Assembly (NCBI GenBank): GCA_041658665.1
Contig: JBAZZR010000001.1
Coordinates: 320,576-384,575 of the forward strand
Length of the DNA: 64,000 nt
From: Patescibacteria group bacterium
Lineage (GTDB): Bacteria; Patescibacteriota; Patescibacteriia; Patescibacteriales; UBA12465
Reading direction: 5' to 3'
Under the pieces are notes generated by a model. That model was given only the letters and a program-made list of their open reading frames with translations, was not told the origin of the DNA and did no database searches. The position numbers and the translations under genes were made by a program. Position 1 is the stretch's first letter. Each line of letters opens with the position of its first letter. Positions 3,634 through 30,011 of the stretch are shown piece by piece.

Positions 3634-3660
3634 TTTAATTTATTTTTTAATAATAAATTT

Positions 3661-4422: not shown

Positions 4423-4450
4423 ATTTAATTATTATTTAAGTTTTATCCCC

Positions 4451-5401
4451 ATGACTACTAAACAAATATATGACCTCGCCATTTCGTTAGGCATTACTTA
4501 TGACTTGCGTGGCGCTGAAAAGGTCGGTAAATATTTAGCCCGCGTTAAGAAAAATTATGAGGCTAGCCCCGATAAGGCGAAAGCGGAATTTGATTCGGAA
4601 AGATTCACTAACCCCTATTCGGACTCGAAAATTTTAGTGGATAGCGGCCGAGTCGTTAAGAAGGTTTTGACGGGTATTGATATGGAGGGAGCTGAACTTT
4701 TATTAGCTAAACAGCTAGGCGTTGATTTAGTAATTGCTCATCATCCGGCCGGTTCGGCTTTGGCTGATTTATCTGATGTCATGCATTTACAAGCTCAGGT
4801 TTTAGCTAATTATGGCGTGCCGATTAATATTGCCGAATCAGTAATTAAACCCCGGATTAGCGAAGTGACTCGCGGGATTTCGCCAATCAATCATGAACAG
4901 CCAGTTGATTTAGCCAGAATTTTGGATTTAGATTTTATGTGTGTTCATACTCCGGCGGATAATATGTCCGCTAGTTTCATAATAAAATTATTGCAAGACA
5001 ATGAAGGAAAAATCGAGACAGTTGGAGAAGTCGTTGATTTACTTAAGACGGTTCCGGAATATGCCGCCGCAATTCGTCATAAATCTGGCCCCATGATTTT
5101 TGCTGGCGCCCCGGAAAATAGTTGTGGCAAAATTGTCGTCACGGAGTTTACCGGTGGCACTAATGGTTCTGAGGATATCTACGAGAAAATGGCGCAATAT
5201 GGACTGGGCACAATTATCGGCATGCATATGAGCGAGGAACATCTTAAGGAAGCTGAGAAATATCACATTAACGTTATTATCGCTGGCCATATCGCTTCCG
5301 ACTCCTTAGGTATGAATTTATTTTTAGATGAAATAGAAAAGCAGGGGATTGAAGTAATTCCGATTTCGGGATTAATCAGAGTTAAGAGATTTAAAATTTA
5401 A
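4451..5401 (+). CDS. NIF3-family dinuclear metal centre protein
   Basis: DLVIAHHPAG, CVHTPADN and IIAGHIASDSLG motifs match the NIF3/YbgI metal-ligand pattern. I prefer the ATG at 4451 over the ORF-track start at 4406, which overlaps the upstream gene. Confidence 0.6.
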   Translation: MTTKQIYDLAISLGITYDLRGAEKVGKYLARVKKNYEASPDKAKAEFDSERFTNPYSDSKILVDSGRVVKKVLTGIDMEGAELLLAKQLGVDLVIAHHPAGSALADLSDVMHLQAQVLANYGVPINIAESVIKPRISEVTRGISPINHEQPVDLARILDLDFMCVHTPADNMSASFIIKLLQDNEGKIETVGEVVDLLKTVPEYAAAIRHKSGPMIFAGAPENSCGKIVVTEFTGGTNGSEDIYEKMAQYGLGTIIGMHMSEEHLKEAEKYHINVIIAGHIASDSLGMNLFLDEIEKQGIEVIPISGLIRVKRFKI

Positions 5402-5431
5402 GTAAAGTAATACTCGGCGATGCTATAAATT

Positions 5432-6718: not shown

Positions 6719-7293
6719 TTTCGTTTTTAAGAGGGACAGTAATTAATAAAAGTCTAAATTACGCGATAATTGAAGTCGCTGGTTTAGGTTATCAGGTCTA
6801 CGGCACGGAGAATTTTTTGGCCGAAATAAAAATAAATTCTCCGGTAGAAACCTATACTCATCACCAGCTTCGTGAGGACGCCAGCGATTTGTACGGTTTT
6901 AAGACTTTAGCGGATTTAGAATTATTTGAATTATTGTTAACGGTTTCTGGCGTCGGGCCGAAGTCCGCTCTCGGCGTTTTAGCGATTGCCACAACGGATG
7001 ATATTAAAGAGGCGATTATTAGAGGCGACGCTAATCTTTTAACGAAAGTTTCCGGAATCGGCCAAAAGACGGCGGAACGCTTAGTCCTTGAATTAAAAAA
7101 TAAGGTTATTCGGTCGACTGGAGCGGCGACGCTTATTAATTCCACTTTAGTCGGCAATGATGAATTAGACGCTCTAATGTCCTTAGGCTATTCGCTAGCG
7201 GAAGCGAGAACGGCTCTTAATTTAGTCGAGGCGTCTCTTACTAATAGCGCCGATAGAGTCCGGGAGGCGCTTAAAAAAATGGTTAAAAAATAG
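6715..7293 (+). CDS. ruvA: Holliday junction branch migration complex subunit RuvA
   Basis: MISFLRGTV..IIEVAGLGYQV start, HhH segments LLTVSGVGPKSAL and VSGIGQKTAERL, and a C-terminal domain III. ATGA overlap with the upstream gene. Confidence 0.9.
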   Translation: MISFLRGTVINKSLNYAIIEVAGLGYQVYGTENFLAEIKINSPVETYTHHQLREDASDLYGFKTLADLELFELLLTVSGVGPKSALGVLAIATTDDIKEAIIRGDANLLTKVSGIGQKTAERLVLELKNKVIRSTGAATLINSTLVGNDELDALMSLGYSLAEARTALNLVEASLTNSADRVREALKKMVKK

Positions 7294-8832: not shown

Positions 8833-9873
8833 ATGTTCAATAATTTTTTAGGAAAATTTAGTCACGATCTCGGCATTGACTTAGGAACTAAGAATACTTT
8901 AGTTTATGTGGCCGATAAAGGAGTGGTGATAAATGAACCGAGCGTCGTCGCGATTAATAAACGGACTAATGAAATTTTGGAGGTCGGTGAAGCCGCTAAA
9001 AAAATGGTCGGTAAAACTCCGGGACATATTGACGCGATTAAACCTCTCGTCGAAGGAATTATTTCGGATTTTGAAGTGACGGAAAAGATGTTGAAATATT
9101 TTATTAATAAGGTTCATAGTGAAAATTTTGCTCTTATTCCGCGTCCCCGAGTAGCGATTGGTATCCCGCTTGATTTAACAGAAGTAGAGAAAAAAGCGGT
9201 CGAGGATGCGGCCAAGTCGGCGGGAGCCCGTAAAGTATATTTAATTGAGGAAGCGATGGCGGCCGCGATTGGCGCTCATTTGCCGGTTATTTCCGCGACC
9301 GCGACGATGATTGTTGATATTGGCGGCGGCACGACGGAAATAGCGGTTATTTCTTTAGGTGGAGTGGTTACCTGGAAATCATTGAAAGCGGCGGGTAATG
9401 AATTTGACAATAATATTATTGAATATATTCGAGAAGAATTTAATATTTTAATCGGCGAGCAGTTAGCGGAAAATATTAAAATTAAAATTGGTTCGGCCGT
9501 GCCTTTAGATTCGCCGGAAGAGATTGAAGTCCGAGGGCGCGATCTTTTGACCGGTCTACCAAAAGCTTTAATGGTGAGCGATAAGCAGATTAGGGAAGCG
9601 ATTAGCCGAACTGTTTTTAAAATTATTGAAAATATTAAAATTATTCTCGAGACAACACCGCCGGAATTAGTTTCCGATATATACGAACGGGGTTTATATT
9701 TATCAGGGGGCGGGGCTTTACTGCGCGGCTTAGATAAAGCCGTTTCGTCAGCGACTAAGATTCCGGTTAAAATAGTCGATGATCCTCTGACCTCGGTCGT
9801 TCGGGGGGCGGGGATTCTGCTGGGTGACGAAGAACTATTAAGTAAGGTGGTTCTACCAACCAATATTGAGTAG
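8833..9873 (+). CDS. mreB: Rod shape-determining actin homologue MreB
   Basis: DLGIDLGTKNT, INEPSVVA, DIGGGTTEIAVISLGG and LSGGGALLRGLD motifs. Followed directly by mreC and mreD. Confidence 0.95.
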   Translation: MFNNFLGKFSHDLGIDLGTKNTLVYVADKGVVINEPSVVAINKRTNEILEVGEAAKKMVGKTPGHIDAIKPLVEGIISDFEVTEKMLKYFINKVHSENFALIPRPRVAIGIPLDLTEVEKKAVEDAAKSAGARKVYLIEEAMAAAIGAHLPVISATATMIVDIGGGTTEIAVISLGGVVTWKSLKAAGNEFDNNIIEYIREEFNILIGEQLAENIKIKIGSAVPLDSPEEIEVRGRDLLTGLPKALMVSDKQIREAISRTVFKIIENIKIILETTPPELVSDIYERGLYLSGGGALLRGLDKAVSSATKIPVKIVDDPLTSVVRGAGILLGDEELLSKVVLPTNIE

Positions 9874-9877
9874 TCTT

Positions 9878-10681
9878 ATGAAAATTAAAAAGAACGATCC
9901 AGTCTTAATCTTTACCATCGTAATTATTCTTCTGTTCTTTTCGCATTTTTTAGGAATTCTTAAACCAGTCGAAGACTCTTTACTTTGGTTGGCTAAACCG
10001 TTTAGTAGTCGCTTATACAACTGGGGAGCGACTTTTAATAATTCCTATAATACTAATAAGAAAAATAGTGATTTACAATCTAGGGTGGAAGCTTTAACTA
10101 AGGAAGTGGCGCTCTTGACCGTGGCCGGTTCCCAGTGTCGGGAAATGAGTGAAGAGAATAAAAAACTCAGAGACATTTTAAAATTTTCGGCTGTTAGTGG
10201 TTTTCATAATATTGCGGCTAAAATTATGGCCAAGGAAACTATGACTGATGGCGGAAATCTAATTATTGATCGCGGCCGTTTTGATGGTTTGCGCAGCGGC
10301 TTAGCCGTCGTTAGTGAAGAAGGAATTATGGTCGGCAAGATAGTCGAAGTCAAAGATTCTAGCGCTCTTATTTGTTTAACAATTAGTCCTAATTGTCAAT
10401 TGGCGGCCATGGTGCAAAATCAAAATCAAAATAATACTCAGGGAATCACTGACGGTGATCTGGGGCTAACTATTAAGATGAGTTATATCCCTCAATTAGA
10501 GAAGATTGCGCCAGGCGATGTCATTACCACTTCCGGTTTAGGAGATGATATTCCGCGGGGTCTAGTGATTGGACGGATAACTCAGGTTCGTAACGGCAGC
10601 AATGAGGTTTGGCAGGAAGCGACTATTGAGCCGCCCCTTAATTTCGATGGTCTAACGGTTGTGTCGGTCATTATTCCTTAA
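9878..10681 (+). CDS. mreC: Rod shape-determining protein MreC
   Basis: N-terminal TM helix, a coiled-coil (LQSRVEALTKEVALL) and a C-terminal beta-rich domain with VITSGLGDDIPRGLVIG. Sits after mreB. ATG at 9878 preferred to TTG at 9866. Confidence 0.8.
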   Translation: MKIKKNDPVLIFTIVIILLFFSHFLGILKPVEDSLLWLAKPFSSRLYNWGATFNNSYNTNKKNSDLQSRVEALTKEVALLTVAGSQCREMSEENKKLRDILKFSAVSGFHNIAAKIMAKETMTDGGNLIIDRGRFDGLRSGLAVVSEEGIMVGKIVEVKDSSALICLTISPNCQLAAMVQNQNQNNTQGITDGDLGLTIKMSYIPQLEKIAPGDVITTSGLGDDIPRGLVIGRITQVRNGSNEVWQEATIEPPLNFDGLTVVSVIIP

Positions 10682-14703: not shown

Positions 14704-15711
14704 ATGTTTATTAAACGAATCGGGATTGATCTCGGAACAACTTATACTTTAATTTATGTCCCTCGTCGGGGCATTGTTATTAACGAACCGAGCGTCGTCG
14801 CGGTGTCTATTGCTGATAAAAAAATTCTGGCGGTTGGCAACGAAGCAAAAGATATGATCGGACGAACGCCAGACACGATTAAGGCAGTCCGTCCTTTAAA
14901 AGATGGGGTAATTGCTGATTATCGGGCGACGGAAGCGATGATCCGTTATTTTGTTAATAAAACTTTAGGAGGGATTCGTCTCTTCCGTCCGGAAGTGATG
15001 GTTGCGGTTCCGGCCGGAATTTCTTCAACGGAACGACGAGCGGTTATTGAAGCGACTATTGCGGCGGGTGCTAAAGCCGCTTATATTATTAAAGAACCGG
15101 TGGCGGCCGCGATTGGCGCGGATATTCCGATTGGTTCCGCGACTGGGCATATGGTTATTGATATCGGGGGCGGTACGGCCGAAATGGCCGTCATTTCCTT
15201 AGGCGGTATTGTCGCTTCGACCTCGGTTAGAATTGGCGGTAATAAATTCGATGCGTCTATTTTAGAGCATGTTCGCAAAAAATATAATTTGGCGATTGGT
15301 GAGAGAACCGCCGAAGAGATAAAGATTAATATTGGCTCCGCTTTATATATGGAAGATAAATTATATTTAGAAGTGCGGGGCCGGGATATTGTTACCGGAC
15401 TGCCACGCAGTATTACCGTCTCTAGCGACGATGTGACGGAAGCTATTCAAGGAGAACTAGAAGCGATTATTTCCGTAGCGAAAAAAGTGCTTCAGAAAAC
15501 GCCGCCGGAATTATCCGCTGATATTATGGATAAAGGCATCGTACTAACGGGTGGGAGTTCTCTTTTGCGTAATATTGACCAATTAATTGCTCGGACGACA
15601 GGAGTCTCTGCTTATGTCGCTGATGACGCGATGCTTTGTGTCGCCAAGGGGACAGGTATTGCTTTAGATAATTTAGATTCTTATAAACGTAGTATTCTAG
15701 CGACTAAATAA
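14704..15711 (+). CDS. mreB: Second MreB-family actin homologue
   Basis: IGIDLGTTYT, INEPSVVA, DIGGGTAEMAVISLGG and LTGGSSLLRNID. A paralogue of the gene at 8833. Confidence 0.9.
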   Translation: MFIKRIGIDLGTTYTLIYVPRRGIVINEPSVVAVSIADKKILAVGNEAKDMIGRTPDTIKAVRPLKDGVIADYRATEAMIRYFVNKTLGGIRLFRPEVMVAVPAGISSTERRAVIEATIAAGAKAAYIIKEPVAAAIGADIPIGSATGHMVIDIGGGTAEMAVISLGGIVASTSVRIGGNKFDASILEHVRKKYNLAIGERTAEEIKINIGSALYMEDKLYLEVRGRDIVTGLPRSITVSSDDVTEAIQGELEAIISVAKKVLQKTPPELSADIMDKGIVLTGGSSLLRNIDQLIARTTGVSAYVADDAMLCVAKGTGIALDNLDSYKRSILATK

Positions 15712-17012: not shown

Positions 17013-19034
17013 ATGAAGAAAATATTGGCATCTTTTTTTATTTTATTGTTTTTTGTGGCGCGAGCAGCTACGGCCTCTTTAATTCCTAACGACACTTATT
17101 ATAATAATCAGTGGTATTTAGGTAAAATTAAGGCCGATAGCGCTTGGAGCAAGATTTCCGCTAGTCCGGACATTACTATCGCCGTGATTGATGCCGGAAT
17201 ACAAATTACTCATCCGGATTTACGGGATAATATTTGGCGTAGTAGTCGCGAAATAGCGGGTAACGGAATTGATGATGATCGTAATGGTTTTATTGATGAT
17301 GTAAACGGTTGGGACTTTGTAAATAATCTGCCCGATCCGGCGCCTAAATTCATGTCTGGCTGGACTGAAGCGGGCGTGTCACACGGAACTATGGTTACAG
17401 GGGTAATCGCTGCGCGCGGTAATAATCGAGAGGGTATCACCGGCCTGACCTGGGCGACTAAAATTATGCCGCTTAAGGCTTTAAATGATAAAGGGGAAGG
17501 ACGGACGAGCGATGTGGTTCGAGCGATTGATTATGCTATTAATAATGGCGCGGATATTATTAATTTGAGTTTTGTCTCTTTAAATTATAATGCTAGTTTG
17601 CAAGAAGCTATTACTCGTGCCTATCAGGCGGGAGTAATCGTGGTCGCGGCCGCCGGTAATGAACAAAGCGGTGGTGAAGGTTATAATACCGATAAGACCC
17701 CTATTTATCCGGCTTGTTATGACGGCAGCGCGGGAGAAAATATGGTTATTGGTGTTGCTGCCACGGATGCTTTAGACCAAAAGACTAAGTTTTCTAGTTA
17801 TGGGTCGCGCTGTGTTGATTTAGTCGCCCCTGGTATTAGTTTTTTTAGTACAATTAGTGCCGGTAGTGTCAAAAATGACCCTAATCGGATTTACGATGGC
17901 TATTGGTCGGGAACTTCGATGGCCGCCCCTTTAGTGTCGGCAACTTTAGCTTTAATTGAACAGGCTGATCCCGCTTTGAGTCCTAAAGAGGCGGTTAATA
18001 TATTATTGGCCTCGACTGATAATGTAAGCCGTTTGAATCCGGCCTATTTAGGCCAGCTCGGTTTAGGACGTTTAAATGTAAACCGGGCGATTGAGATGAC
18101 TAAGGAGAAATTATATCGGCAGGTTGGACATTTAATAATTATTCCCGCCCGCGGCGATAAAGAGGCGAAGCTAACAGTCGCTAACGGTGATTTAGTTGAT
18201 AATCTGTCTAGCGCTAATTTTAAAAGTGGATCTAATCCGGTAGCGGGTGATGTTAATAATGATGGAATAGAAGAATTTGTGATTGGCGCCGGCGCCGGCT
18301 CAGAACCGCAGGTTAAAATACTCGATGCCCATGGGAAACTATTAGAAAAATTTTTAGCTTTTGATAAAAATTTTCGCGGCGGCGTGGCGCTCGCTCTCGG
18401 CGATCTTGATGGTAACGGCAGCCAGGAAATTATTACGGCTCAGGCGTCTTTAGGCAATGGACAAATACGAGTTTTTGATTCTCGCGGTAAGTTAAAAAAA
18501 CAATTTTTTGTTGACAATAAATATTGGCGCGGCGGCCTTAATTTAGCGGCGGGTGATTTAGAAGGGAGCGGTCGCGCTTCAATCGTTGTCGGTTACGGAG
18601 CGGGGAAGGAGCCGCTCATAAAAATTTTTAAATCAGATGGTCGCTTGCTTAGCAGTTTTTATGCTTACGAAAAAAAGTTTCGCGGTGGCGTTAGATTAGC
18701 ACTGGCTAATTTGTATGGCCGGAAAGCCCATAATCGACTAAATATTATTGTGGCGCCGGGCCCTGGCCGCGAACCGCTTTTGAAAATTTTTGATTACAGT
18801 AGTTTGAAAAAAGAATTTTTAGTTTATGGAGAGAATTGGCAGGGAGGAGTAAGCCTCGCCGCCGGCGATCTTAATAATGACGGCGTAGCGGAAATCGCGC
18901 TAGGCGCTTTACCAGGCGCCGCGCCACATGTGCGAGTTTTTAGCGGCCAAGGCGATTTATTAGAATCTTTCTATACCTGGGAAGAGGGTTTTAAGGGGGG
19001 GGTAAATGTTGGTATAATAGAGATAAATAATTAA
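17013..19034 (+). CDS. Secreted S8 (subtilisin-like) serine protease fused to FG-GAP-like repeats
   Basis: Signal-peptide-like N-terminus. Catalytic triad contexts AVIDAGI (D), SHGTMVTG (H) and GTSMAAPLVSA (S). The C-terminal half carries repeated (F/W)RGG..A.GDL.G.G motifs. Confidence 0.85.
   Translation: MKKILASFFILLFFVARAATASLIPNDTYYNNQWYLGKIKADSAWSKISASPDITIAVIDAGIQITHPDLRDNIWRSSREIAGNGIDDDRNGFIDDVNGWDFVNNLPDPAPKFMSGWTEAGVSHGTMVTGVIAARGNNREGITGLTWATKIMPLKALNDKGEGRTSDVVRAIDYAINNGADIINLSFVSLNYNASLQEAITRAYQAGVIVVAAAGNEQSGGEGYNTDKTPIYPACYDGSAGENMVIGVAATDALDQKTKFSSYGSRCVDLVAPGISFFSTISAGSVKNDPNRIYDGYWSGTSMAAPLVSATLALIEQADPALSPKEAVNILLASTDNVSRLNPAYLGQLGLGRLNVNRAIEMTKEKLYRQVGHLIIIPARGDKEAKLTVANGDLVDNLSSANFKSGSNPVAGDVNNDGIEEFVIGAGAGSEPQVKILDAHGKLLEKFLAFDKNFRGGVALALGDLDGNGSQEIITAQASLGNGQIRVFDSRGKLKKQFFVDNKYWRGGLNLAAGDLEGSGRASIVVGYGAGKEPLIKIFKSDGRLLSSFYAYEKKFRGGVRLALANLYGRKAHNRLNIIVAPGPGREPLLKIFDYSSLKKEFLVYGENWQGGVSLAAGDLNNDGVAEIALGALPGAAPHVRVFSGQGDLLESFYTWEEGFKGGVNVGIIEINN
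18210..19031 (+). repeat. Coding tandem repeats of about 50 aa (FG-GAP/VCBS-like propeller blades)
   Basis: Five to six degenerate units of the form F/W-[RQK]-GG-V-x-L-A-x-GDL-x-G-x-G...EI...G...P-x-[IV]-K-[IV]-F, read in the translation. Confidence 0.7.
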
Positions 19035-19038
19035 CTAT

Positions 19039-20061
19039 ATGTCTAAACAAGTTATCTTTGATAAAAAAAATATTTTAGTGGCCGGGGGAGCGGGGTTTAT
19101 TGGTTCGCATTTGTGCGATGAATTACTGAAGACTAATAAAGTCATTTGCGTCGATAATTTTATTTCGGGGAGTGAACGTAATATTGATCATTTATTGTCT
19201 AACCCAGATTTTATTTTTATTAATTATGATTTAACTCAGCCGCTTGATTTAGAAAAATTAGATGAGTTGAAAAAATTTAAAATTGAATTTCAAGGTTTGC
19301 AAACAATTTATAATTTAGCTTGTCCGATGTCGACGCGCTATTTTTTAGATAATCGTTTAGCCACGCTAACCGCTAATTCTTATGTCGTTAAAAATCTTTT
19401 GGATTTAGCGGTTAAATATAATTCCCAGTTTTTACAATTTTCTTCCTCAGTGGTTTATGGCTTGCGGAGTACAGACCAAACTAATCTTAAAGCTAAGGAG
19501 GGTGATTGGGGCTCCCTTAATCAATTATCAGAACGGAGCGCATATGACGAAGGGAAACGTTTCGCGGAAACGCTAGTTAGCAATTATCGAGCGATTTACA
19601 ATATTGACGCCCGTATTGCTCGGGTATTTCGTGTTTATGGTCCTCGAATGAAAGACGAGGATGATCAAATGATTCCGGATTTTATTTCTGCCGCTTTGGA
19701 AAATAAGGAGATAGTGATAAGCGGTGACGCTAATTTTTCTTCTTCTTTTTGTTATATTGACGATATTATCGACGCGACTCTTAAATTTATGAGTTCAGAA
19801 TTAACCGGGCCGGTGAATATCGGTTCTGATGTTGATGTTAATTTAACGGAGTTAGTAAAAATAATTATCAGAGAAACTGGGTCAGAGTCAACCATTGTTT
19901 ATTCTGATAGCAAATTATTTTTCTCGGAATTAGTTTTGCCGGATATTTATTTTATTAAAAATGAACTTGGTTGGATGCCGGTAGTAACTCTGGAAAATGG
20001 TTTGAAAAAGACAATTTTTGATATTAAAGCTAATAAAAAATTACAGAATTTTGGCGGCTAA
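19039..20061 (+). CDS. NAD-dependent epimerase/dehydratase, UDP-glucuronate decarboxylase-like
   Basis: VAGGAGFIGSHLCDEL Rossmann motif and SAYDEGKRFAE (YxxxK), with extended-SDR architecture. Confidence 0.75.
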   Translation: MSKQVIFDKKNILVAGGAGFIGSHLCDELLKTNKVICVDNFISGSERNIDHLLSNPDFIFINYDLTQPLDLEKLDELKKFKIEFQGLQTIYNLACPMSTRYFLDNRLATLTANSYVVKNLLDLAVKYNSQFLQFSSSVVYGLRSTDQTNLKAKEGDWGSLNQLSERSAYDEGKRFAETLVSNYRAIYNIDARIARVFRVYGPRMKDEDDQMIPDFISAALENKEIVISGDANFSSSFCYIDDIIDATLKFMSSELTGPVNIGSDVDVNLTELVKIIIRETGSESTIVYSDSKLFFSELVLPDIYFIKNELGWMPVVTLENGLKKTIFDIKANKKLQNFGG

Positions 20062-20084
20062 TTTTGCTGATTTTTTAGTCACAT

Positions 20085-20118
20085 AAAAAACTCGCTGGCG
20101 GCGCCAGCGAGTTTTTTT
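20085..20118. terminator. Bidirectional rho-independent terminator between convergent operons
   Basis: AAAAAA-CTCGCTGG..CCAGCGAG-TTTTTTT. A GC-rich stem flanked by an A-run and a T-run, lying between the stops at 20061 (+) and 20124 (-). Confidence 0.85.
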
Positions 20119-20123
20119 ATGTT

Positions 20124-21233
20124 TTATGCTAAATTGTTTAATTTACTGATTAGATCAGTTGCATCGCCTGGTCGGAATAAAATGTCGCTAGCCGTGAGCA
20201 TCTCGGGGATGCCGCCGAGATTGGCGGCGATGACCGGGAGGCCTAGCGATTTAGCTTCATAAATAACGCGGGGAGAATTCTCGTAGCAGAGCGAGGGCAC
20301 GATTAAATAATCGTTGTTTAACATAATCTCGTGAATGGTGGCAGCCGCCTGACGTCCGAGAAAGCGGATATTTTTATGAGGAGCGGCGGCGGCTTGAGCG
20401 GAGTGGAACTGAGTGCCGTTGCCAACAATAGTCAAGAGGAAATTCGGTTTATTAAGATTTTTAAAAACATTGATTAAGAAAAAAACGCCTTTATGGTTTT
20501 CTATTTGTCCGACGAATAAGAATTTTTTTATTAGCGAATTAGTGATTGGGGTAGGGGGCGGCGTATCCACTAGTTTAGCTGTCTGGTTAGTTAAAATTTT
20601 AGCCGCCGGTGGAAGAGATTTTTCTGATAACCAGGGGCTAACCTTAGTCGCGGAATGAGGAAAAAATTTATGTTGTTGGTGTAGTTTAAGAAGCCAAGCC
20701 GAGGGAGAAACGATTTGATCAGGAGAACCGATTAGTCCGCGCGTAATTGTTTGATAAACTTTAGCCGCAGGGTTGTTTATTTTATTTTCTTGGCCTAAAA
20801 GCATTAGGCCGGAAGGATGAAGGAGCTGGATATCGTGTAAAACATGTTCGTGCCTAGCTTTTTGTCGTCTAATCGCGATAGGTGTTAGATAACCTAGGCC
20901 CATTAGATTATGGGTAACTATTAAGTCGGGTTTCTCGGTTTGGAGAATTTTTCTTAGCCGGCGGTATTTCCAGAAGGAGAGGATATTACCGATTTGCCAA
21001 ACGGCTCTATATAGTAGGCCGTGTCGGCCGAGATTATAAAAATCAGAGTTTAAATAGTAAGAACGCGGTTCGCTAGTTGGAACAATTTCTTCTGGTTTAT
21101 TCTTATTTTTAGTGCTTACCATAAAAAGATCGTGGCCCTGAGATTGTAACTCTTGGGCCTGAGCTTTAACGACAGCTTCCGCGCCGCCTCGGCTATCTGA
21201 TCCCGATAGATTATGAATTAGACCGATTTTCAT
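20124..21233 (-). CDS. Glycosyltransferase family 1
   Basis: N-terminal SGSDSRGGAEAVV and C-terminal VPSLCYENSPRVIYEAKSLGLPVIAANLGGIPE. Confidence 0.8.
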   Translation of the reverse strand: MKIGLIHNLSGSDSRGGAEAVVKAQAQELQSQGHDLFMVSTKNKNKPEEIVPTSEPRSYYLNSDFYNLGRHGLLYRAVWQIGNILSFWKYRRLRKILQTEKPDLIVTHNLMGLGYLTPIAIRRQKARHEHVLHDIQLLHPSGLMLLGQENKINNPAAKVYQTITRGLIGSPDQIVSPSAWLLKLHQQHKFFPHSATKVSPWLSEKSLPPAAKILTNQTAKLVDTPPPTPITNSLIKKFLFVGQIENHKGVFFLINVFKNLNKPNFLLTIVGNGTQFHSAQAAAAPHKNIRFLGRQAAATIHEIMLNNDYLIVPSLCYENSPRVIYEAKSLGLPVIAANLGGIPEMLTASDILFRPGDATDLISKLNNLA

Positions 21234-22353
21234 AAAATATTTGTTTTAATCTAGATTTGATATTTTTTTCATCATACTTATTTTCGGCAAGCAATCGAGC
21301 GGCTCGAGCCATAGCCAACCGTTTGTCTTCATGATCTAAGATAAATTTTAATTTATTTTGCAAATCTTGAGTACTCCCCGCTTGAATAAGTAAGCCTTCC
21401 TGCGAGTCGTTAAAGACGCGGCGAACGCCGGGGAGATTAGAGGCCAAAACGGGCACGCCGCAGGCTAAAGCCTCAATTAGAACTAAGCCGAAAGCTTCAT
21501 TGTTGTTAATTGATGGTAAGACTAAAAGATCGGCTGTTTGATAAGTCCGGATTAAATCGTCATCACTTAATTTCCCTCGGAAAGAGATTTGTCGGTTAAT
21601 TCCTAAGGCTCGAGACAGGGCCTCGTAACCTGGTTGTAAATCGCCCGCTCCGACAATATCGAGCCGCCAGTCCGATCGGACTAAGTTCGCGAGTGATTTT
21701 AATAAAATAGGGAGGCCTTTAAAATAATGAGCCTGATCGAGACCGCCCACAAAAAGTAGTTGCCGCCGACCCTTTTTAATAAATTTATTATTTATAAAAT
21801 CGACTATTTTTTTAGCATAAGTTAGCCCCGGCTGGCCCGACGTTTCGTTTGATTTAGGTTTGTAGGCGCTTAAATTTAGGCCGAAAGGAATTTCTCGGAA
21901 TTTACTAGAGTGATTTTTATAATAATTCTTAATTGAACTACTCGCGACATAATCCAGGCTAGCGCTAATAATAGTTTCGGCTTGATTAAATAATTGGTCG
22001 CGAATAATGAGGCTAGGCAAGCTCAATACTTGGTTAATCCAGCGGTCGCTTTTAACATCCATATGATAATGGATGATAAGTTTAGGGCGACGAAAAAATA
22101 GTTTAAATAGCCAGATGATTTCGGCCGTGCCAAAAAAAGGATAATGCAAATAAATATAATCAAAGCCTCGGAGACGCCAAAGTAATTGTGGCAAAAAAGC
22201 GCCATGGCCGTAATGTAGCCAGGGTTTTAAGGTAGTCGGCGAGAAAGTAATTATTTCATAATCTTCCGCCAGGATTTTATTTTCGCGGTGAGCGCTCGTC
22301 GCTATGCCGCTAGCGTCCGGCGGATAGGTACAAACAACCGAGGCTATTTTCAT
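21211..22353 (-). CDS. Glycosyltransferase family 1
   Basis: LVLPSINNNEAFGLVLIEALACGVPVLASNLPGV motif. Overlaps the downstream GT1 gene by 23 nt. Confidence 0.8.
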   Translation of the reverse strand: MKIASVVCTYPPDASGIATSAHRENKILAEDYEIITFSPTTLKPWLHYGHGAFLPQLLWRLRGFDYIYLHYPFFGTAEIIWLFKLFFRRPKLIIHYHMDVKSDRWINQVLSLPSLIIRDQLFNQAETIISASLDYVASSSIKNYYKNHSSKFREIPFGLNLSAYKPKSNETSGQPGLTYAKKIVDFINNKFIKKGRRQLLFVGGLDQAHYFKGLPILLKSLANLVRSDWRLDIVGAGDLQPGYEALSRALGINRQISFRGKLSDDDLIRTYQTADLLVLPSINNNEAFGLVLIEALACGVPVLASNLPGVRRVFNDSQEGLLIQAGSTQDLQNKLKFILDHEDKRLAMARAARLLAENKYDEKNIKSRLKQIFYENRSNS

Positions 22354-22355
22354 AC

Positions 22356-22682
22356 TTATTTTTTATTATCTAAAGCAACGTGGCGGGTCATAGTCGTTAA
22401 ATCAGAATCGAGTTTCGCTAATCTTAATCTTAATTTAAAAACTAAATAGAAAAGTGCTATGACGGCTAAATAGATTAAGAAATTAATGCCACTACCGGAA
22501 AAGCCTAGCCAGTTAACTAGGCGGTCAATTTGTTTAATTAAAATTATGGCCGCCGCCCCGCTGAGCCAGAAAATTAACCAAACCGCGAATTCTTTATTAT
22601 TAATTTCCTGGTTATTTTTTTCTTTAATTAAGCGGGAAATAAAATAGATGATAATTAACAGGGCAATAATTTGTTGTAACAT
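22356..22682 (-). CDS. Small three-helix membrane protein (DUF2304-like GT2 partner)
   Basis: 108 aa with three hydrophobic helices and a charged C-terminus. Abuts the GT2 gene, an arrangement typical of DUF2304. The family assignment is from memory, not a search. Confidence 0.45.
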   Translation of the reverse strand: MLQQIIALLIIIYFISRLIKEKNNQEINNKEFAVWLIFWLSGAAAIILIKQIDRLVNWLGFSGSGINFLIYLAVIALFYLVFKLRLRLAKLDSDLTTMTRHVALDNKK

Positions 22683-22683
22683 A

Positions 22684-23346
22684 TTATTTAATTAGTTTAT
22701 TGATTAGAAGATCGCGGATGATTCGGAAACCACCGCTTAGTTTTTGTCCAAAATCTTGGTAGATAACGGTAATCGGAACTTCCACTACTCGTAACTTATT
22801 TTGAAAAGCCTTAATTTGGATTTCGCTAGCGTGGGCCATCCCTTGATTGTTGATAGTGATAGTTTTTAGAGCGACCCGGCTTAAAGCGCGTAAGCCACTT
22901 TGCGGATCGCTTAGCTTTATGCCTAAAAAGAAACGAGTAAAAAATTTAGCGAGCGGCATGATAATATATTTTTTGCCAAAAGGGAAGGCCGTTTTTTTAC
23001 TTAAAAAACGTGAGCCGAAAACTATATCAGCTTGGTTTTTTAAAATTGGCTCAATCAGCTCGGGAATTTCGGTAGCTAAGAATTGGCCGTCGGCATCGAA
23101 ATGAATAACTAAATCCGCGCCATTTTTAAGAGCATAGTTGTCCCCTGTCTCCAGTGCCGCCCCCTGGCCGCGATTAATCGGATGTTTAATAACAATAGCG
23201 CCTGACTGGGCCGCTAACTGAGCAGTCGAGTCTGTCGAGCCGTCGTCGACAACAATAATCTCATGAACATAGGGCCGGAGGCTGCTAATTACTGTCGTAA
23301 TATTTTTTTCTTCATTAAGGGCCGGTAGGACACAACTTATTTTCAT
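22684..23346 (-). CDS. Glycosyltransferase family 2 (polyprenyl-phosphate sugar transferase-like)
   Basis: SCVLPALNEE, VVDDGSTDST and HFDADGQ (DxD) motifs. Confidence 0.85.
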   Translation of the reverse strand: MKISCVLPALNEEKNITTVISSLRPYVHEIIVVDDGSTDSTAQLAAQSGAIVIKHPINRGQGAALETGDNYALKNGADLVIHFDADGQFLATEIPELIEPILKNQADIVFGSRFLSKKTAFPFGKKYIIMPLAKFFTRFFLGIKLSDPQSGLRALSRVALKTITINNQGMAHASEIQIKAFQNKLRVVEVPITVIYQDFGQKLSGGFRIIRDLLINKLIK

Positions 23347-24353
23347 AATAATCCTTCTTTTATTTTTTGAGTTTTATCGTCTTCCCAAGATCGGTAGCCT
23401 TCTTTCAGAGCGGATTTTTTTAGTTTATCTAAAAATTTTTGGTCGTTTAATTCTGGTTTGGTTAAGATAATATTTTTCAGAGTCGGCGATAATTTAAATA
23501 ATTCAAAAAGACCGATTAGTTGTCTGTGGTTAGAATTATTTATTTTTGGTTGCCGGCTTAATTTCGCTAAGCGTTGGTTGATAATTAACTTGAGACTATC
23601 TAATTTTAAACGAGCCGGCAGATTAATTTGCCACACTTTTTGCAAAACTTCCCAAGAACTAGCGGCGGTTAGCGAGCCAATAACTAGCCGCCCGGTTGCG
23701 GCCGCCCGTAGCGCGCCTTTAAGCAAAGCGGGCTGATCGAGATTATCAATAAAGAGACAATCAGAATCCTGCCGCAGTATTCTTTCTAAATTTTCCGAAC
23801 GAGCCGACATCGTACTTACTCCCGGTAGCTTATAAGGCGGATGATCTTCTAAAGAATAGATGCTTAGATCGTTACTATTTAAATAAAGAAGGAGCGCTCG
23901 CAGGGTCGAGCTTTTTCCTTGGGCGGGCGGGGAACTAATAATAATTAAGCCGGATTTTTTTTGACAGCTCAGTTTTAAATTTTTTAAGTCAACTCGGGAC
24001 AACCCTAATTGTTCTAAGCGCCATAATTCTAACGACGGTTTGATAATGTTAATAATGATTTTTTCGCGCTTATTGTCCGGCAGGACGCTGAGGCGATAGT
24101 TTAAGTGATCCAGTGATCTCTTAATTTTTCCTCTTTTTTCGGTCATTAGTTCTCCTGGGCTGATCGCTAGTATTTTTTGGAGATTAATAAAAAATTCTTG
24201 TTCCAATTTTTTTGGCAAGAGGAAACGGCGGCTGGTACCATTTTTTTGATAGCCGTCGATAATGATATTTTTTTCCGCCGCGCTTATCACCAGTTTATCT
24301 AGATTAGTTTTTTGGGCGTAAGTGCAGAGATTATTAAAAATTTTTCTATTCAT
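23343..24353 (-). CDS. GspE/PilB-like secretion-ATPase homologue with degenerate catalytic motifs
   Basis: The N2-like segment LNYRLSVLPDNKREKIIINII and a core collinear with type II/IV secretion ATPases. Walker A reads SPPAQGKSS. The Walker B/Glu region reads LRQDSDCLFIDNLDQ (canonical LRQDPDvimvGEiRD). The His box reads TGRLVIGSLTAA (canonical TGHLVlSTLHTN). Confidence 0.6.
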   Translation of the reverse strand: MNRKIFNNLCTYAQKTNLDKLVISAAEKNIIIDGYQKNGTSRRFLLPKKLEQEFFINLQKILAISPGELMTEKRGKIKRSLDHLNYRLSVLPDNKREKIIINIIKPSLELWRLEQLGLSRVDLKNLKLSCQKKSGLIIISSPPAQGKSSTLRALLLYLNSNDLSIYSLEDHPPYKLPGVSTMSARSENLERILRQDSDCLFIDNLDQPALLKGALRAAATGRLVIGSLTAASSWEVLQKVWQINLPARLKLDSLKLIINQRLAKLSRQPKINNSNHRQLIGLFELFKLSPTLKNIILTKPELNDQKFLDKLKKSALKEGYRSWEDDKTQKIKEGLL

Positions 24354-24430
24354 GGCCTTATTATAGCATGGTTTTGTATTATTTAAAAATATGATAAACT
24401 TAGATTAAATCAATAATTTGGTTATTTTTT

Positions 24431-24844
24431 ATGGTTTACTCTAATTTTTATGATCGTTTCTACCGCGCTCGTCGCGCTAGCGCTAAAGCTTTTTTAGCTC
24501 TTTGGTATTTTTTACCTAGTCGTTTCTATTTTTTAGCGTCTGGTTTACTTAATATCTTAGCTTGGGCCGAAGCCGCGTTTATTCGTCATAGTTTAAGCGG
24601 TGATCTCTTAGTGCTCCATTATAATGTTGATTCGGGTATTGATTTGGTAGGCGATCCGGCTCAAATTTTCTGGTATCCAATTTTTGGTTTAGTGATTTTA
24701 ATTATAAATTATTCTCTCGCCGCCGCCTATTCTAAACAGCCAAATTTTCGATTCGGCGCCCATTTACTCCTGGCGACCGCCTTGATTTTTTCTGGTCTGT
24801 TAAATTTCGTCTTGATGTTCGTTTATCTGGTTAATTTTAAGTAG
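24431..24844 (+). CDS. Hypothetical membrane protein
   Basis: 137 aa with three to four hydrophobic helices and no recognised motif. Lies just upstream of mraY. Confidence 0.5.
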   Translation: MVYSNFYDRFYRARRASAKAFLALWYFLPSRFYFLASGLLNILAWAEAAFIRHSLSGDLLVLHYNVDSGIDLVGDPAQIFWYPIFGLVILIINYSLAAAYSKQPNFRFGAHLLLATALIFSGLLNFVLMFVYLVNFK

Positions 24845-24855
24845 TTTAGTCTATT

Positions 24856-25905
24856 ATGACAGAATTCTATATTATTAAAATCTTATTCTTTTCGGTTTTA
24901 GCTTTTATTTTTTCAATGTCGCTCGCGCCCGCTTTGACTCATTATTTGTATAAATATAAATTAGGTAAGCAAATCCGCAATAGTGGCGAGACGCCAATTT
25001 TTAGTCAGCTCCATGCCCATAAAGTCGGCACCCCGACTATGGGGGGAATTTTAATTTGGGGAACACTTTTGATTTTTATTGTCTCCTTCGCTTTATTAGA
25101 AAAATTTTTTACCTGGAATATTTTAGCTCATCTTAATTTTTTTTCTCGGTCGGAAACTTTATTACCGCTCGCCGCCTTAATTATTAGCGCTTTAATCGGT
25201 TTATTTGACGATTGGCTGGATGTGCGCGGTAAAGGAGTGCTCGGTGGCGGCGGTTTAAAATTACGTCATCGTCTTTTAATTTATACTTTAATTGCCATCG
25301 TAGGCGCACTATGGTTTTATTATAAATTAGACTGGACGGTTTTTCATGTGCCTTTTTTAGGTAATTTTGAAATCGGGGCTTGGTATATACCAATTTTTAT
25401 TTTTATGATTGTTGCGACCTCTTTTTCCGTTAATGAAAGCGATGGCTTGGACGGACTGGCGGGCGGGACTTTATTAGTTGCCTTTGTCGCTTATAGCGTG
25501 ATTGCTTTTTCCTTAGGTCGCTACGAACTAGCAACTTTTTGCGGAGTAATTATCGGTTCTTTATCGGCTTTCTTATGGTTTAATATTCCGCCGGCTCGAT
25601 TCTATATGGGAGACACGGGCGCGATGAGTTTAGGCGTGACTCTAGGCATCATTGCCATGCTGACCAACAGTTCTTTATTTTTGATTTTTATTGGTTTTAT
25701 TTTTTTATTAGAATCTCTGTCGGTAATTATACAGATGCTGTCGAAAAAAATTAGAGGGAAAAAAATTTTTTTATCCGCGCCTTTGCATCACCATTTACAA
25801 GCGATTGGTTGGCCAGAAGCTAAAATCGTGATGCGTTTTTGGGTGGTTTCGGCGATTGGCGCCGCCTTAGGCTTGATTATTTTCTTATTGGATAGGCGCT
25901 TTTAA
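24856..25905 (+). CDS. mraY: Phospho-N-acetylmuramoyl-pentapeptide transferase
   Basis: GTPTMGG, FDDWLDV, NESDGLDGLAGG, MGDTGAMSLG and APLHHHL motifs. Confidence 0.95.
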   Translation: MTEFYIIKILFFSVLAFIFSMSLAPALTHYLYKYKLGKQIRNSGETPIFSQLHAHKVGTPTMGGILIWGTLLIFIVSFALLEKFFTWNILAHLNFFSRSETLLPLAALIISALIGLFDDWLDVRGKGVLGGGGLKLRHRLLIYTLIAIVGALWFYYKLDWTVFHVPFLGNFEIGAWYIPIFIFMIVATSFSVNESDGLDGLAGGTLLVAFVAYSVIAFSLGRYELATFCGVIIGSLSAFLWFNIPPARFYMGDTGAMSLGVTLGIIAMLTNSSLFLIFIGFIFLLESLSVIIQMLSKKIRGKKIFLSAPLHHHLQAIGWPEAKIVMRFWVVSAIGAALGLIIFLLDRRF

Positions 25906-27085: not shown

Positions 27086-28204
27086 ATGAGTGAACAACTT
27101 CAGAAAACAAAAACGATATTTTTAAGCGGTGGCGGATCGGGCGGTTCAGTGACGCCGCTTTTGGCCGTGGCCGAAGAATTATTAAAATCTGATATTCAAG
27201 ATTATCGTTTAGTTTTTATTGGCACCGCTCAGGGACCGGAAAGAGATATGGTCGCCGATTTTAATCGAAAAGTCGGGGTATTAGAATTTCGTAGTATTAC
27301 TGGCGGGAAATGGCGGCGTTATTTTTCTGGACATAATATTTTCGATTTTTTTAAAATTATTTTCGCTTTTTACCAATCTTTACGCCTCTTGTCAGCCGAG
27401 AAAGTCGATTTAATAATTAGCGCGGGGAGCTTTATTAGCGTTCCTTTAGTTTGGGCCGCGGCTTGTAAAAAAGTGCCGATTTTAATTCATCAACAAGATG
27501 TTCGGCCGGGTTTTGCTAACAGGTTAATGGCTCCTTTTGCTTCAGTGATTAGTGTGGCTTTAGAAAAATCTTTGTTAGACTACGGCCCGCGAGCGATTTG
27601 GATTGGTAATCCGGTCGCACCGGATCAAGCGGATCAAGACGCCTTATCGGTTAAAGAAATAAAAGATAAGTATAGTTTAGACATAAGTCGGCGGCTCATC
27701 TTTATCACTGGTGGCGGCACCGGCGCTCAGGCCGTTAATGAATTAATTTTCGCCGCCGCTCCGGAATTAGTGAAGTCTTACCAAGTTATTCATTTAGTCG
27801 GCAGAGGGAAGTTACCGTCTAGAAAGATTAAGTTACCTAATTATCAAGTTTTTGAATTTTTAAATAATGAAGAGGTTTTAGATTTAATGCGTGCGGCCGA
27901 TTTAGTAATTTCCCGCGCCGGCATGTCGGCGCTTAGCGAATTATCTTTATTGAATAAAGCCGCGATTTTAATTCCTATTCCTAATTCGCATCAAGAAGAT
28001 AACGCGGCGGTTTTCGCACAGGCGAAAGCGGCTGTCGTTCTAAAGCAAAACGATTTAGTGCCGGAAAGTTTGCTAGCGGAAATAAAAAAGATATTGGATG
28101 ACGGTCAAGAGAGAGTTAGACTATCTAATAGTATAGGCAAGGTAATTAAACGCGGCGCGGCGGAGGCTATGGCCGGGATAGTTTGGGAGATGTTGGGGAA
28201 ATAA
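27086..28204 (+). CDS. murG: Lipid II synthase MurG (UDP-GlcNAc transferase)
   Basis: GGGSGGSVTPLLAVAEEL N-terminal loop and the C-terminal ISRAGMSALSEL...HQEDNA motif. Confidence 0.9.
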   Translation: MSEQLQKTKTIFLSGGGSGGSVTPLLAVAEELLKSDIQDYRLVFIGTAQGPERDMVADFNRKVGVLEFRSITGGKWRRYFSGHNIFDFFKIIFAFYQSLRLLSAEKVDLIISAGSFISVPLVWAAACKKVPILIHQQDVRPGFANRLMAPFASVISVALEKSLLDYGPRAIWIGNPVAPDQADQDALSVKEIKDKYSLDISRRLIFITGGGTGAQAVNELIFAAAPELVKSYQVIHLVGRGKLPSRKIKLPNYQVFEFLNNEEVLDLMRAADLVISRAGMSALSELSLLNKAAILIPIPNSHQEDNAAVFAQAKAAVVLKQNDLVPESLLAEIKKILDDGQERVRLSNSIGKVIKRGAAEAMAGIVWEMLGK

Positions 28205-28541: not shown

Positions 28542-30011
28542 ATGGATAGAACTAAGATTTTTAAGCTAATTATGCCTAAAAAATTAAGCAAAAAACAGAA
28601 CATCTACTGTATCGGCGTAAAAGGAGTCGGCATGACTATGTTGGCCCAATTTTTGGCGGCGAAAGGGAATAAGATAAGCGGGTCGGATATTGTTGATGTC
28701 TTTTTAACCGATCGGGTTTTGCGGAAAGCTAAAATCAAGGTTTTTTCTCCTTTTGCCGTAAAAAATATTCCGGATAAAATAGATGCCATTATATATTCTA
28801 CTTCCCAAGATTTGAAAAATAATCCGGAGCTAGCTTTTATTAAGAATAACCCGGCTCGTTTCCAGGGGGTATCGTTTTTGTCTTATGCCGAAGCGCTCGG
28901 TCAAGTTTTTAATCAATATCGAGGCGTAGCCGTCTGCGGCAGCCATGGTAAGACGACGACTTCGGCTTGGCTCGGCTATGTTTTAATGAAGGCCGGAAAA
29001 AAACCTAATGTTCTAGTGGGTTCGCGCGTTCCACAATTCGCTGGCAGCGGCCTGTCCGGATCGTCGTCAGATTTTATTGCCGAAGTTGATGAATATCAGA
29101 ATAAGCTCCAGTATTTTCAGCCGCACGGCGTAGTCTTGAATAATATTGATTATGACCATCCAGATTTCTTTAAAACCCCGGCGGCTTATACTAAAGTCTT
29201 CGCGGATTTCGTAAAGAAAATTCCGGCTCGCGGATTCTTAGTCGTTAGTCAACGCGACTTAGAAAGCCAGAAAATAAAAAGATATTGTCGCGGTAAGCTT
29301 ATTAGTTATAATTTAGTAACTGGCTCGTATGGCGCTGGCGCCGACTACTTAGCTTATGACGTAAAAACGTCAGGGATCTTTCAATCATTTTCTTTAAGTT
29401 ATCAGGGCGAGGCTTTGGGTCGCTTTAAGATCAAGCTTTGGGGCGAGCATAATATCTTGAATGCGCTTGCGACTATCGCAGCGGCGCGCGAAATGAAAGT
29501 CGCTTGGCCGCAGATTAGAAAACATTTAGCCGGTTTTCGTGGGACAGATCGCCGGGCGCAAATTTTAGGAAAATATAAAGGCGCTCTAATCGTTGATGAC
29601 TATGCCCATCATCCGACTGAAATTAAAAGCACTCTAGCCGGTTTACGTCGCCATTATCCGACTAAGAACATTATCACTGTTTTTCATCCCCATACTTTTA
29701 CTCGTACTAAAGCTTTCTTTAAAGATTTCGCCGTGTCTTTCGCCGATACGAATGAACTGATAGTCCTGGATATCTATGGCTCGGCGCGCGAGAAGCAAGG
29801 CGATGTCTCGAGCCGGGAATTAGTCGTTGCGATTAAGAAATATAATCAAAGCGCTCGGATCAAACAGCCGGTTCGCGCTATTGCTAATATTCCTGAGGCT
29901 ATTCAATATTTAAAAAATCGTCTCCAGGCCAGAGATTCGTTGGTTCTAATGGGAGCGGGCGACGTTTTCCGAATCGCTGACGGGTTGCTAAAACCTAATC
30001 AAAGAAAATAA
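28542..30011 (+). CDS. murC: UDP-N-acetylmuramate--L-alanine ligase
   Basis: IGVKGVGMTMLAQFLAAKGNKISGSD N-terminal Rossmann motif, GSHGKTTTS P-loop, and DDYAHHPTEI. Confidence 0.9.
   Translation: MDRTKIFKLIMPKKLSKKQNIYCIGVKGVGMTMLAQFLAAKGNKISGSDIVDVFLTDRVLRKAKIKVFSPFAVKNIPDKIDAIIYSTSQDLKNNPELAFIKNNPARFQGVSFLSYAEALGQVFNQYRGVAVCGSHGKTTTSAWLGYVLMKAGKKPNVLVGSRVPQFAGSGLSGSSSDFIAEVDEYQNKLQYFQPHGVVLNNIDYDHPDFFKTPAAYTKVFADFVKKIPARGFLVVSQRDLESQKIKRYCRGKLISYNLVTGSYGAGADYLAYDVKTSGIFQSFSLSYQGEALGRFKIKLWGEHNILNALATIAAAREMKVAWPQIRKHLAGFRGTDRRAQILGKYKGALIVDDYAHHPTEIKSTLAGLRRHYPTKNIITVFHPHTFTRTKAFFKDFAVSFADTNELIVLDIYGSAREKQGDVSSRELVVAIKKYNQSARIKQPVRAIANIPEAIQYLKNRLQARDSLVLMGAGDVFRIADGLLKPNQRK

Follow-up and report, generated by a model that had tools for sequence, protein, structure and literature searches.

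Why should a protein built like a pilus motor stand at the head of an operon of glycosyltransferases? The question is raised by a stretch of 64,000 nucleotides (nt) from a Patescibacteria group bacterium (assembly GCA_041658665.1, contig JBAZZR010000001.1, positions 320,576 to 384,575), hereafter the window, in which a minus-strand gene with an ATG start (23343..24353) encodes a degenerate PilB/GspE-family protein of 336 amino acids (aa). ATPases of the PilB/GspE/PilT type have been studied almost only as motors. An initial annotation, made from the DNA sequence alone, had described this one as a catalytically degenerate homologue and took it to point to a repurposed scaffold or regulator, possibly linking pilin or surface-protein glycosylation to the pilus machinery. 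We found that the protein has the ancestry and fold of the type IV pilus extension ATPase PilB, that its motif losses extend, as judged from aligned sequences, across its clade, that it is under purifying selection, that its gene lies hard against a family 2 glycosyltransferase (GT2) gene, and that sister genomes hold an intact PilB in the same slot. We give about an even chance to the reading that it no longer works as a motor but, without catalysis of its own, has a structural or regulatory part in a pathway built on a polyprenyl-phosphate sugar synthase.

By domain and by fold, the protein is a member of the T2SSE superfamily, with two domains only, N2D and a RecA-like C-terminal domain (CTD). 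Pfam T2SSE (PF00437) matched aa 7-268 with 76.9 bits (E=1.5e-21, cutoff 24.9), whereas the NCBIfam equivalog models for GspE, PilB, ComGA, TfpB and PilT reached just 57-90 bits against cutoffs of 300-850; the PilB (TIGR02538) and GspE (TIGR02533/NF007755) models gave 83-90 bits against cutoffs of 617-676, and the PilT model aligned end to end (86-335 to 80-328 of 343). An AlphaFold model computed from the clade alignment (pLDDT 88.4, pTM 0.69) matched PilB 5tsh (E=2e-27) and EpsE 1p9w (TM score 0.76) in a Foldseek search of the PDB, with PilT and DotB trailing in the structural ranking (~1e-20 vs ~1e-27). The N1D/MshEN domain (PF05157) was not found in the 336-aa protein, whose sequence begins at N2D, and no CxxC occurs anywhere in its length (three scattered Cys only), so it is without the tetra-Cys zinc site. 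What it shares with PilB of Geobacter metallireducens (5tsh) and EpsE of Vibrio cholerae (1p9r) is thus the N2D and RecA-like CTD fold and a collinear series of motif blocks; what sets it apart from them is the lack of N1D/MshEN, the tetra-Cys site, the catalytic Glu, the His-box histidines, the second arginine finger, PQDGR and the first Walker A Gly, as well as coupling to a glycosyltransferase (GT) operon with no pilC or pilin neighbours. PilT and PilU resemble it in size (~340 aa) and in having neither N1D nor the zinc motif, but PilT is catalytically intact and scored lower than PilB/GspE in both sequence and structure comparisons. Because the defining catalytic features, N1D, the zinc site, the equivalog scores and the linkage to pilC all fail, the protein should not be filed as PilB, GspE, TadA or PilT, contrary to public annotations.

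We registered the motifs by HMMER alignment to V. cholerae EpsE (1p9r, E=2.7e-16), which upheld the readings of the initial annotation for Walker A, Walker B, the His box and the missing CxxC. The Walker A remnant SPPAQGKSS (aa 141-149; 23907..23933, minus strand, as for all motifs here) lies opposite GPTGSGKST of EpsE and departs from GxxxxGK[ST] in its first Gly, which has become Ser; Gly146, Lys147 and Ser148 are kept. In the Asp-box region, SLEDHPP (aa 167-173; 23835..23855), Glu169 and Asp170 are present. At the Walker B/catalytic-Glu remnant FIDNLDQ (aa 201-207; 23733..23753), VMVGEIRD of EpsE aligned with LFIDNLDQ, the atypical Gly being replaced by Asp and the catalytic Glu by Asn. The His box, TGHLVMSTLHTN in EpsE, reads TGRLVIGSLTAA (aa 220-231; 23661..23696), with the first His changed to Arg and the second to Thr, and both histidines of the gamma-phosphate contact are therefore missing. 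Further losses had gone unremarked: the PQDGR motif of N2D reads TEKRG, the second arginine finger (vvmRiL) reads IINII, and N1D/MshEN is gone as a whole, the first arginine finger being kept (YRLS, Arg87). Walker A, Walker B, the catalytic Glu, two arginine fingers and the Asp-box Glu, which coordinates Mg2+, are conserved throughout PilT-like ATPases (McCallum et al., 10.1101/082750). On this sequence evidence the 336-aa protein has probably lost ATPase activity.

Alignment of the clade indicates that these losses are not peculiar to a single protein. Among 69 members, the first position of Walker A was Ser in 52, Ala in 10 and Gly in 5, the Lys was Arg in about 13, and the following Ser/Thr was often Asn, Gly or His; in several sublineages the Walker A Lys had become Arg, Leu or Ala, or the loop was destroyed. 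The Asp-box Glu position was variable (G 29, E 11, D 11 and S 11 of the 69), and the first arginine finger was mostly Tyr or His. The clade consensus runs SSPxxQG[K/R][S/N/G/H] at Walker A, YFLGxxxE at the Asp box, DSDiIxx(D/-)(E/D/N) at Walker B and TGRLVxxTxxAN at the His box, with KKYCK in place of PQDGR and FYLT...IIINII at the arginine fingers. New invariant residues have arisen, such as an LPKKLE motif and the Arg of TGRLV, which is Arg222 of our protein, stands at the position of the first His-box His and was found in 66 of the 69. Arg277, Glu284, Gly319, Asp326 and Lys330 are likewise invariant in the clade.

To what extent the gene belongs to its surroundings was visible from its neighbours. 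All ten loci retrieved through the PilB-like protein (31-96% identity) had GT2 directly downstream and one common layout, MurB-ABC-MurC-MurG-FtsW-MraY-m137, then X-GT2-DUF2304-GT4-GT4, then epimerase-S8 peptidase-GT4-MreB, where X is the PilB-like gene. Since the layout of ten loci could be mere synteny, we used the better conserved GT2 as a probe of 185k species genomes, which returned 80 loci, 77 of them evaluable. A PilB-family gene preceded GT2 in 56 of the 77, in a degenerate form in 50 and intact in 6. No such gene occupied the slot in the remaining 21: in 5, m137 abutted GT2 and left no room for a gene, in 15 the epimerase was directly upstream, and 1 (L063) fitted neither description. 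A match in L063 was traced to a normal, intact PilT gene that lies 2 kb downstream and is unrelated to the slot. Dozens of the records behind loci L015-L089, metagenome-assembled genomes that represent species and have the Falkowbacteria-type locus, are titled 'uncultured Gammaproteobacteria bacterium', one 'Nanoarchaeia archaeon' and one 'Saccharimonadales'; these titles are evidently placeholder or wrong taxonomy.

The forms in the slot ranged from complete to absent. Intact PilBs of 572-578 aa (L024, L045, L052, L054, L060 and L064) had MshEN, all motifs and the tetra-Cys site (T2SSE 453 bits). Two proteins of 418-419 aa (L042 and L078) had no N1D and had Walker A GK changed to AR or GR but kept the zinc site; they scored 177 bits with T2SSE and 258-288 bits against intact PilB. 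In 15 loci the protein measured 346-399 aa, again with the zinc site, and the P-loop varied from perfect (AGPQSSGKST) through K-to-A and K-to-L to destroyed (26-101 bits); related forms of 346-419 aa retained two CxxC motifs. The clade of the 336-aa protein (320-354 aa, 23 loci, 77 bits) had lost the zinc site, about 10 loci encoded C-terminally shorter proteins of ~290 aa (42 bits), and in the 21 empty slots the gene was absent. In sister genomes the position of the PilB-like gene is taken by an intact, full-length PilB, and intermediates are still extant, a relation that the initial annotation did not mention. Truncated PilB-like fragments lay upstream of GT2 in L058 (5842-6468, 200 aa), L030 (272 aa) and L022 (180 aa), with gaps to GT2 of 529 nt in L058 and 258 nt in L030; they may be pseudogenes, frameshifts, assembly errors or contig ends.

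Spacing to GT2 separated the degenerate genes from the intact ones. From the stop codon to the GT2 start, the median distance was 2 nt for the 320-354-aa forms (range -4 to 35, n=23), 2 nt for the 355-399-aa forms (range -4 to 8, n=15) and 1 nt for the shorter forms (n=10, two outliers looking truncated), against 106 nt for the intact PilBs (range 16-156, n=5); as GT2 start codons were set heuristically, single distances may be a few codons off, but the contrast is large nonetheless. Among the 48 degenerate genes, the junction was often an ATGA overlap. The only feature that co-varied with degeneration was this fusion into the GT operon. Two loci, L042 and L078, carry the block in the opposite orientation to the sequences around it. 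There the PilB-like gene has gone with the GT operon and parted from m137 and mraY; in L042 it lies 73 nt upstream of GT2. Between the 418-aa PilB-like gene of L078 and its GT2, an inserted gene (3569-6925) encodes a probably secreted protein of 1119 aa. The linkage to glycosyltransferases that had been proposed from the single locus is therefore conserved, in 10/10 loci found through the protein and in about 50/77 found through GT2, and it survives inversion.

Whether such a protein is maintained or merely decaying can be read from its spread and its rate of change. A database search with the 336-aa protein returned 68 proteins of ~335 aa at E<=1e-43, followed by a sharp gap to canonical PilB/GspE of 500-590 aa at E ~1e-21; in a profile search the clade grew to ~98 members, again with a gap (3e-84 to 4e-49). 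When 1.84 billion representatives were scanned exhaustively with HMMER, 28,609 T2SSE relatives came up, and only ~45 clusters exceeded 250 bits. Named members of the clade were Candidatus Falkowbacteria or Patescibacteria, which are ultra-small, uncultivated bacteria. The ratio of nonsynonymous to synonymous substitution rates (dN/dS) between our gene and its counterpart in L001 (96% identical) was 0.042 at a dS of 0.40, close to the values for GT2 (0.039) and the epimerase (0.040). Unsaturated pairs of other degenerate forms gave 0.060-0.086, including one whose Walker A Lys is Leu, and intact PilB gave 0.052-0.063. The degenerate gene is thus kept by purifying selection. Over longer distances its mean identity was 37%, against 63% for GT2 and 77% for MraY, and the combination of low dN/dS with fast long-range divergence points to a maintained protein in which many positions are under relaxed constraint.

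These figures bear directly on the view that the gene is a functionless pilB relic on its way to loss, which we strongly disfavour and regard as very improbable. Five genomes of otherwise identical synteny lack the gene in the slot, it appears truncated or displaced in L058, L030 and L022, and it is the fastest-evolving gene of the neighbourhood, all of which would suit a relic. Against these stand intact open reading frames (ORFs) of conserved length in ~50 species genomes and ~100 database clusters, a dN/dS of 0.04-0.09 that resembles those of intact PilB and the neighbouring enzymes, the newly invariant residues and the confidently predicted fold. The same range of dN/dS fits the earlier proposal of a repurposed, functional pseudo-enzyme.

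Selection acting on forms with so varied a P-loop also bears on a second possibility, that the protein is a nucleotide-binding switch or slow NTPase with a non-canonical site that controls the downstream enzymes, much as a Walker B Glu-to-Gln trap binds nucleotide and barely hydrolyses it. The 336-aa protein keeps Gly146-Lys147-Ser148, Glu169/Asp170 and Arg87, its Asp203 restores the hhhhD of a canonical Walker B, Arg222 could contact phosphate, and some zinc-containing forms have a perfect GxxxxGK[ST], among them L039 (AGPQSSGKST) and L019 (IGPKSSGKSA). None of these retained residues, however, is conserved across the clade; P0002, which is 63% identical to our protein, is already altered at the Asp box. 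The catalytic Glu, the second arginine finger and the gamma-phosphate His are missing, and forms under equal selection have Arg, Leu or Ala for the Lys or a destroyed P-loop. A P-loop Lys that varies between forms under equal constraint means that nucleotide cannot be needed for the conserved function, and we consider a nucleotide switch improbable.

From which motor the protein descends was indicated by its relatives. The closest canonical proteins in a database of 5.8 billion proteins were P0069, P0070 and P0071, which are 56-75% identical to the intact PilBs of the slot; the P0070 locus adjoins m137 and MraY, and distant members of the same PilB group (P0071 and P0160) sit in classical pilB-pilC-pilin loci. 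In a neighbour-joining tree of the ATPase core, with all forms and canonical proteins, the degenerate forms were long branches outside the canonical cluster; as that tree cannot place their origin, degeneration in place rests on synteny, the best database matches and the intermediates. Intermediates that still bear the zinc motif argue for descent from a PilB type and not from PilT. The 336-aa protein is therefore of PilB ancestry.

That ancestry gives weight to a third explanation, in which the pseudo-ATPase still serves a pilus system, capping or poisoning PilB hexamers or occupying PilC/PilM, and owes its place beside the glycosyltransferases to a pilB gene that lay next to m137/mraY. Pseudo-enzymes often regulate active paralogues. 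Patescibacteria can carry two pilB paralogues (PMC11623550), and the intact PilT in L063 indicates that type IV pili exist in the group. Intact full-length PilB occupies the slot in six sister genomes and is also found in L093, and the nearest canonical relatives of our protein belong to the same PilB group as the slot PilBs. The domain through which PilB/GspE receives regulatory inputs and binds partners, N1D/MshEN, is nevertheless gone from the degenerate protein. Searches of the window for pilB, pilC, pilT and pilin genes by prepilin regular expression, phmmer probes and Pfam found none (the ribosomal-protein block at ~50-61 kb was covered by phmmer only, in these scans and in that for GT-C enzymes described below), and neither pilC nor a pilin was found in the ~90 related loci (L001-L090); nor was there a genomic association with pilC (T2SSF), pilins or pilM in either set. 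Degenerate forms are tightly coupled to GT2 (1-2 nt), which intact PilB is not, and on inversion the gene kept to the GT operon side. We therefore regard a surviving pilus role as unlikely, though it remains the most serious competitor to a partnership with the sugar pathway. The suggestion in the initial annotation of a tie to pilin glycosylation or pilus machinery likewise finds no pilus gene to lean on in the window or pilC/pilin in the related loci, and the downstream pair of genes is of a type that decorates cell-wall polysaccharide.

That pair consists of the GT2 (22684..23346, minus strand; 220 aa, no transmembrane segment; Pfam PF00535, 92 bits) and a small membrane protein of 108 aa with a DUF2304 domain (22356..22682, minus strand; Pfam PF10066, 66 bits) from the GacJ/Rv3632 family. 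Along its whole length the GT2 matched the NCBIfam model of PpgS, a polyprenyl-phospho-N-acetylgalactosamine synthase, with 156.5 bits against a cutoff of 370, followed by AglJ, dolichol-phosphate mannose (DPM) synthase and ArnC; its PDB matches were DPM synthase 5mlz (1e-15) and ArnC. As the PpgS score is below the equivalog cutoff, only a class can be assigned to it and not a substrate, and that predicted class is polyprenyl-phosphate sugar synthase (PpgS/GacI/DPM-synthase-like). GacJ and the GT2 GacI associate in a complex, in which GacJ stimulates synthesis of GlcNAc-P-undecaprenol, and Rv3632 stimulates PpgS (10.1101/180810). Essentially every one of the 90 loci had the DUF2304 gene 3' of GT2; in L005 (4800-5294) and L006 (9738-10232), a 164-aa gene on the opposite strand stood between the two. 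Because the GT2 is PpgS-like and the DUF2304 protein is of the GacJ/Rv3632 family, the operon most likely makes a polyprenyl-phosphate sugar for decoration of an envelope glycan, by analogy with those systems. No GT-C acceptor transferase was found in the window by Pfam scans, which covered most of its ORFs. A reading of the locus as a defence system, prompted by weak 'GT4-conflict' Pfam hits, was rejected, as 0/6 proteins had a PADLOC hit.

How, then, might a former motor serve such a pathway? In the explanation we favour, PilB would have given rise to a descendant stripped of N1D/MshEN, the tetra-Cys zinc subdomain and most hydrolysis residues, and this pseudo-ATPase would have been drawn into the operon of a GacI/PpgS-like GT2, a GacJ/Rv3632-like activator and two GT4 enzymes. 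There it could, for example, form an oligomeric cytoplasmic platform that brings the soluble GT2 to the membrane or gates it there, and we postulate that it acts physically or functionally on the GT2/DUF2304 system. Exaptation of this kind is favoured by the family and fold, the motif losses, the selection, the GT2 linkage, the tracking of degeneration by coupling, a partner enzyme of a kind known to operate with a small accessory subunit and a precedent in Myxococcus xanthus, in which PilB influences exopolysaccharide output independently of pilus assembly (PMC5544727, PMC6957770). The likeness is that of a PilB-family protein with a proposed influence on polysaccharide apart from piliation. 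The M. xanthus protein, however, is an active motor with an N-terminal domain that binds cyclic di-GMP and acts through a regulatory pathway, whereas ours is degenerate, is without that domain and lies inside the glycan operon. GacI/GacJ of Streptococcus pyogenes and PpgS/Rv3632 of Mycobacterium tuberculosis share with our locus a soluble GT2 of ~220 aa followed by a DUF2304 gene; no PilB-like third component has been described in either.

We put forward a more specific version only tentatively, namely that a secretion/pilus motor was exapted into a complex for polyprenyl-phosphate sugar synthesis, as a cytoplasmic subunit that is catalytically dead and probably forms rings, and that the transition is preserved stepwise. 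As part of that doubtful version, living Patescibacteria would display a series from intact PilB through loss of N1D, decay of the P-loop, loss of the zinc site and C-terminal shortening to loss of the gene.

Several observations weigh against a role in the sugar pathway. The whole 17-kb neighbourhood is syntenic in the lineage, so adjacency alone is weak evidence, and the absence of a PilB-family gene from the slot in 21/77 GT operons makes the protein accessory and dispensable for the pathway. Among 13 neighbours the degenerate gene evolves fastest, which would be unusual for an obligate enzyme subunit. The intact PilB of L093 is anchored to the m137/mraY side with no GT2 downstream, so the original adjacency to GT2 may be a historical accident, and in L078 the two genes are parted by 3.4 kb, the length of the 1119-aa ORF.

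Should a synthase complex with such an exapted subunit be real, pseudo-PilB, GT2 and DUF2304 would be a three-component system of a new kind for making lipid-linked sugars, and the protein would be a case of a PilB-family pseudo-enzyme working outside filament assembly. We found no description in the literature of a degenerate PilB-family protein tied to glycosyltransferases, within incomplete coverage. That catalysis was lost under strong selection, in an operon for envelope-glycan synthesis, suggests for the N2D-CTD scaffold a function other than that of a motor, and one that can be transferred. A single syntenic slot in which the gene is intact, intermediate, degenerate or missing also makes the locus an unusually clean natural experiment on the order in which a motor ATPase loses parts. 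Public names such as 'ATPase, T2SS/T4P/T4SS family', 'PilB' and 'TadA' could inflate the pilus capacity inferred for genomes of the candidate phyla radiation (CPR). Envelope glycans likely matter for an episymbiotic lifestyle, hence the interest of an extra regulator of their pathway.

The operon runs in the order PilB-like gene, GT2, DUF2304, GT4a and GT4b, all on the minus strand, and the coordinates agree with the junctions given in the initial annotation. The stop codon of the PilB-like gene and the start of GT2 share ATGA (23343-23346), an overlap of 4 nt; gaps of 1 nt and 2 nt separate GT2 from DUF2304 and DUF2304 from GT4a. The last two genes encode glycosyltransferases of the GT4 family (GT1 fold) by Pfam/NCBIfam, GT4a of 380 aa (21211..22353) and GT4b of 369 aa (20124..21233), and overlap by 23 nt (21211-21233). 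Upstream of the PilB-like gene, the top site within 19900-25000 was a putative sigma-70-like promoter on the minus strand (24360..24387; TTTAAA-16-TGcTATAAT, with a TG extension), which matched the consensus at 10/12 positions. Its -10 element ends only 7 nt before the ATG, with no obvious Shine-Dalgarno sequence, and the transcript may therefore be leaderless or have a very short leader. A strong putative bidirectional intrinsic terminator (20085..20117, a 15-bp stem with 7 GC pairs, by sequence match) follows the GT operon and separates it from the convergent epimerase gene. The PilB-like gene is probably co-transcribed with the GT operon and translationally coupled to GT2.

Beyond the operon, the neighbouring m137 gene (24431-24844, plus strand) encodes a membrane protein of 137 aa that no Pfam or NCBIfam model and no PADLOC entry matched. 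Its length was almost always exactly 137 aa, and nearly all related loci had the gene immediately upstream of mraY on the same strand; it stayed with mraY when the GT block was inverted (L042 and L078) and also flanked the intact PilB of L093. It may be an uncharacterised component of the dcw cluster of Falkowbacteria. In the same cluster, murG (27086-28204, plus strand) was 79% identical to that of L001 (dN 0.139, dN/dS 0.23), compared with 89% for murC (28542-30011) and 99% for FtsW and MraY, which suggests local recombination or replacement, or an unusual divergence, of murG. Two MreB paralogues (8833-9873 and 14704-15711, both plus strand) and mreC (9866-10681) lie within 7 kb of this small CPR genome, one mreB being at the edge of the conserved glycan/dcw neighbourhood. 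Beside the glycan genes in nearly all related loci was a secreted subtilisin (S8) with FG-GAP/beta-propeller repeats (17013-19034, plus strand, 673 aa), whose best NCBIfam match, a type VII secretion mycosin, was below cutoff. A ComEC competence channel (PF03772 and DUF4131) is encoded at 42365-43768 (plus strand), though the window has no pilus or competence-pilus genes. Among P0193-P0214, about 15 proteins of ~980-1050 aa each contained 2-4 separate T2SSE-like stretches and scored 193-245 bits with the profile of the degenerate clade, above ordinary PilB; they may be tandem or fused secretion-ATPase modules.

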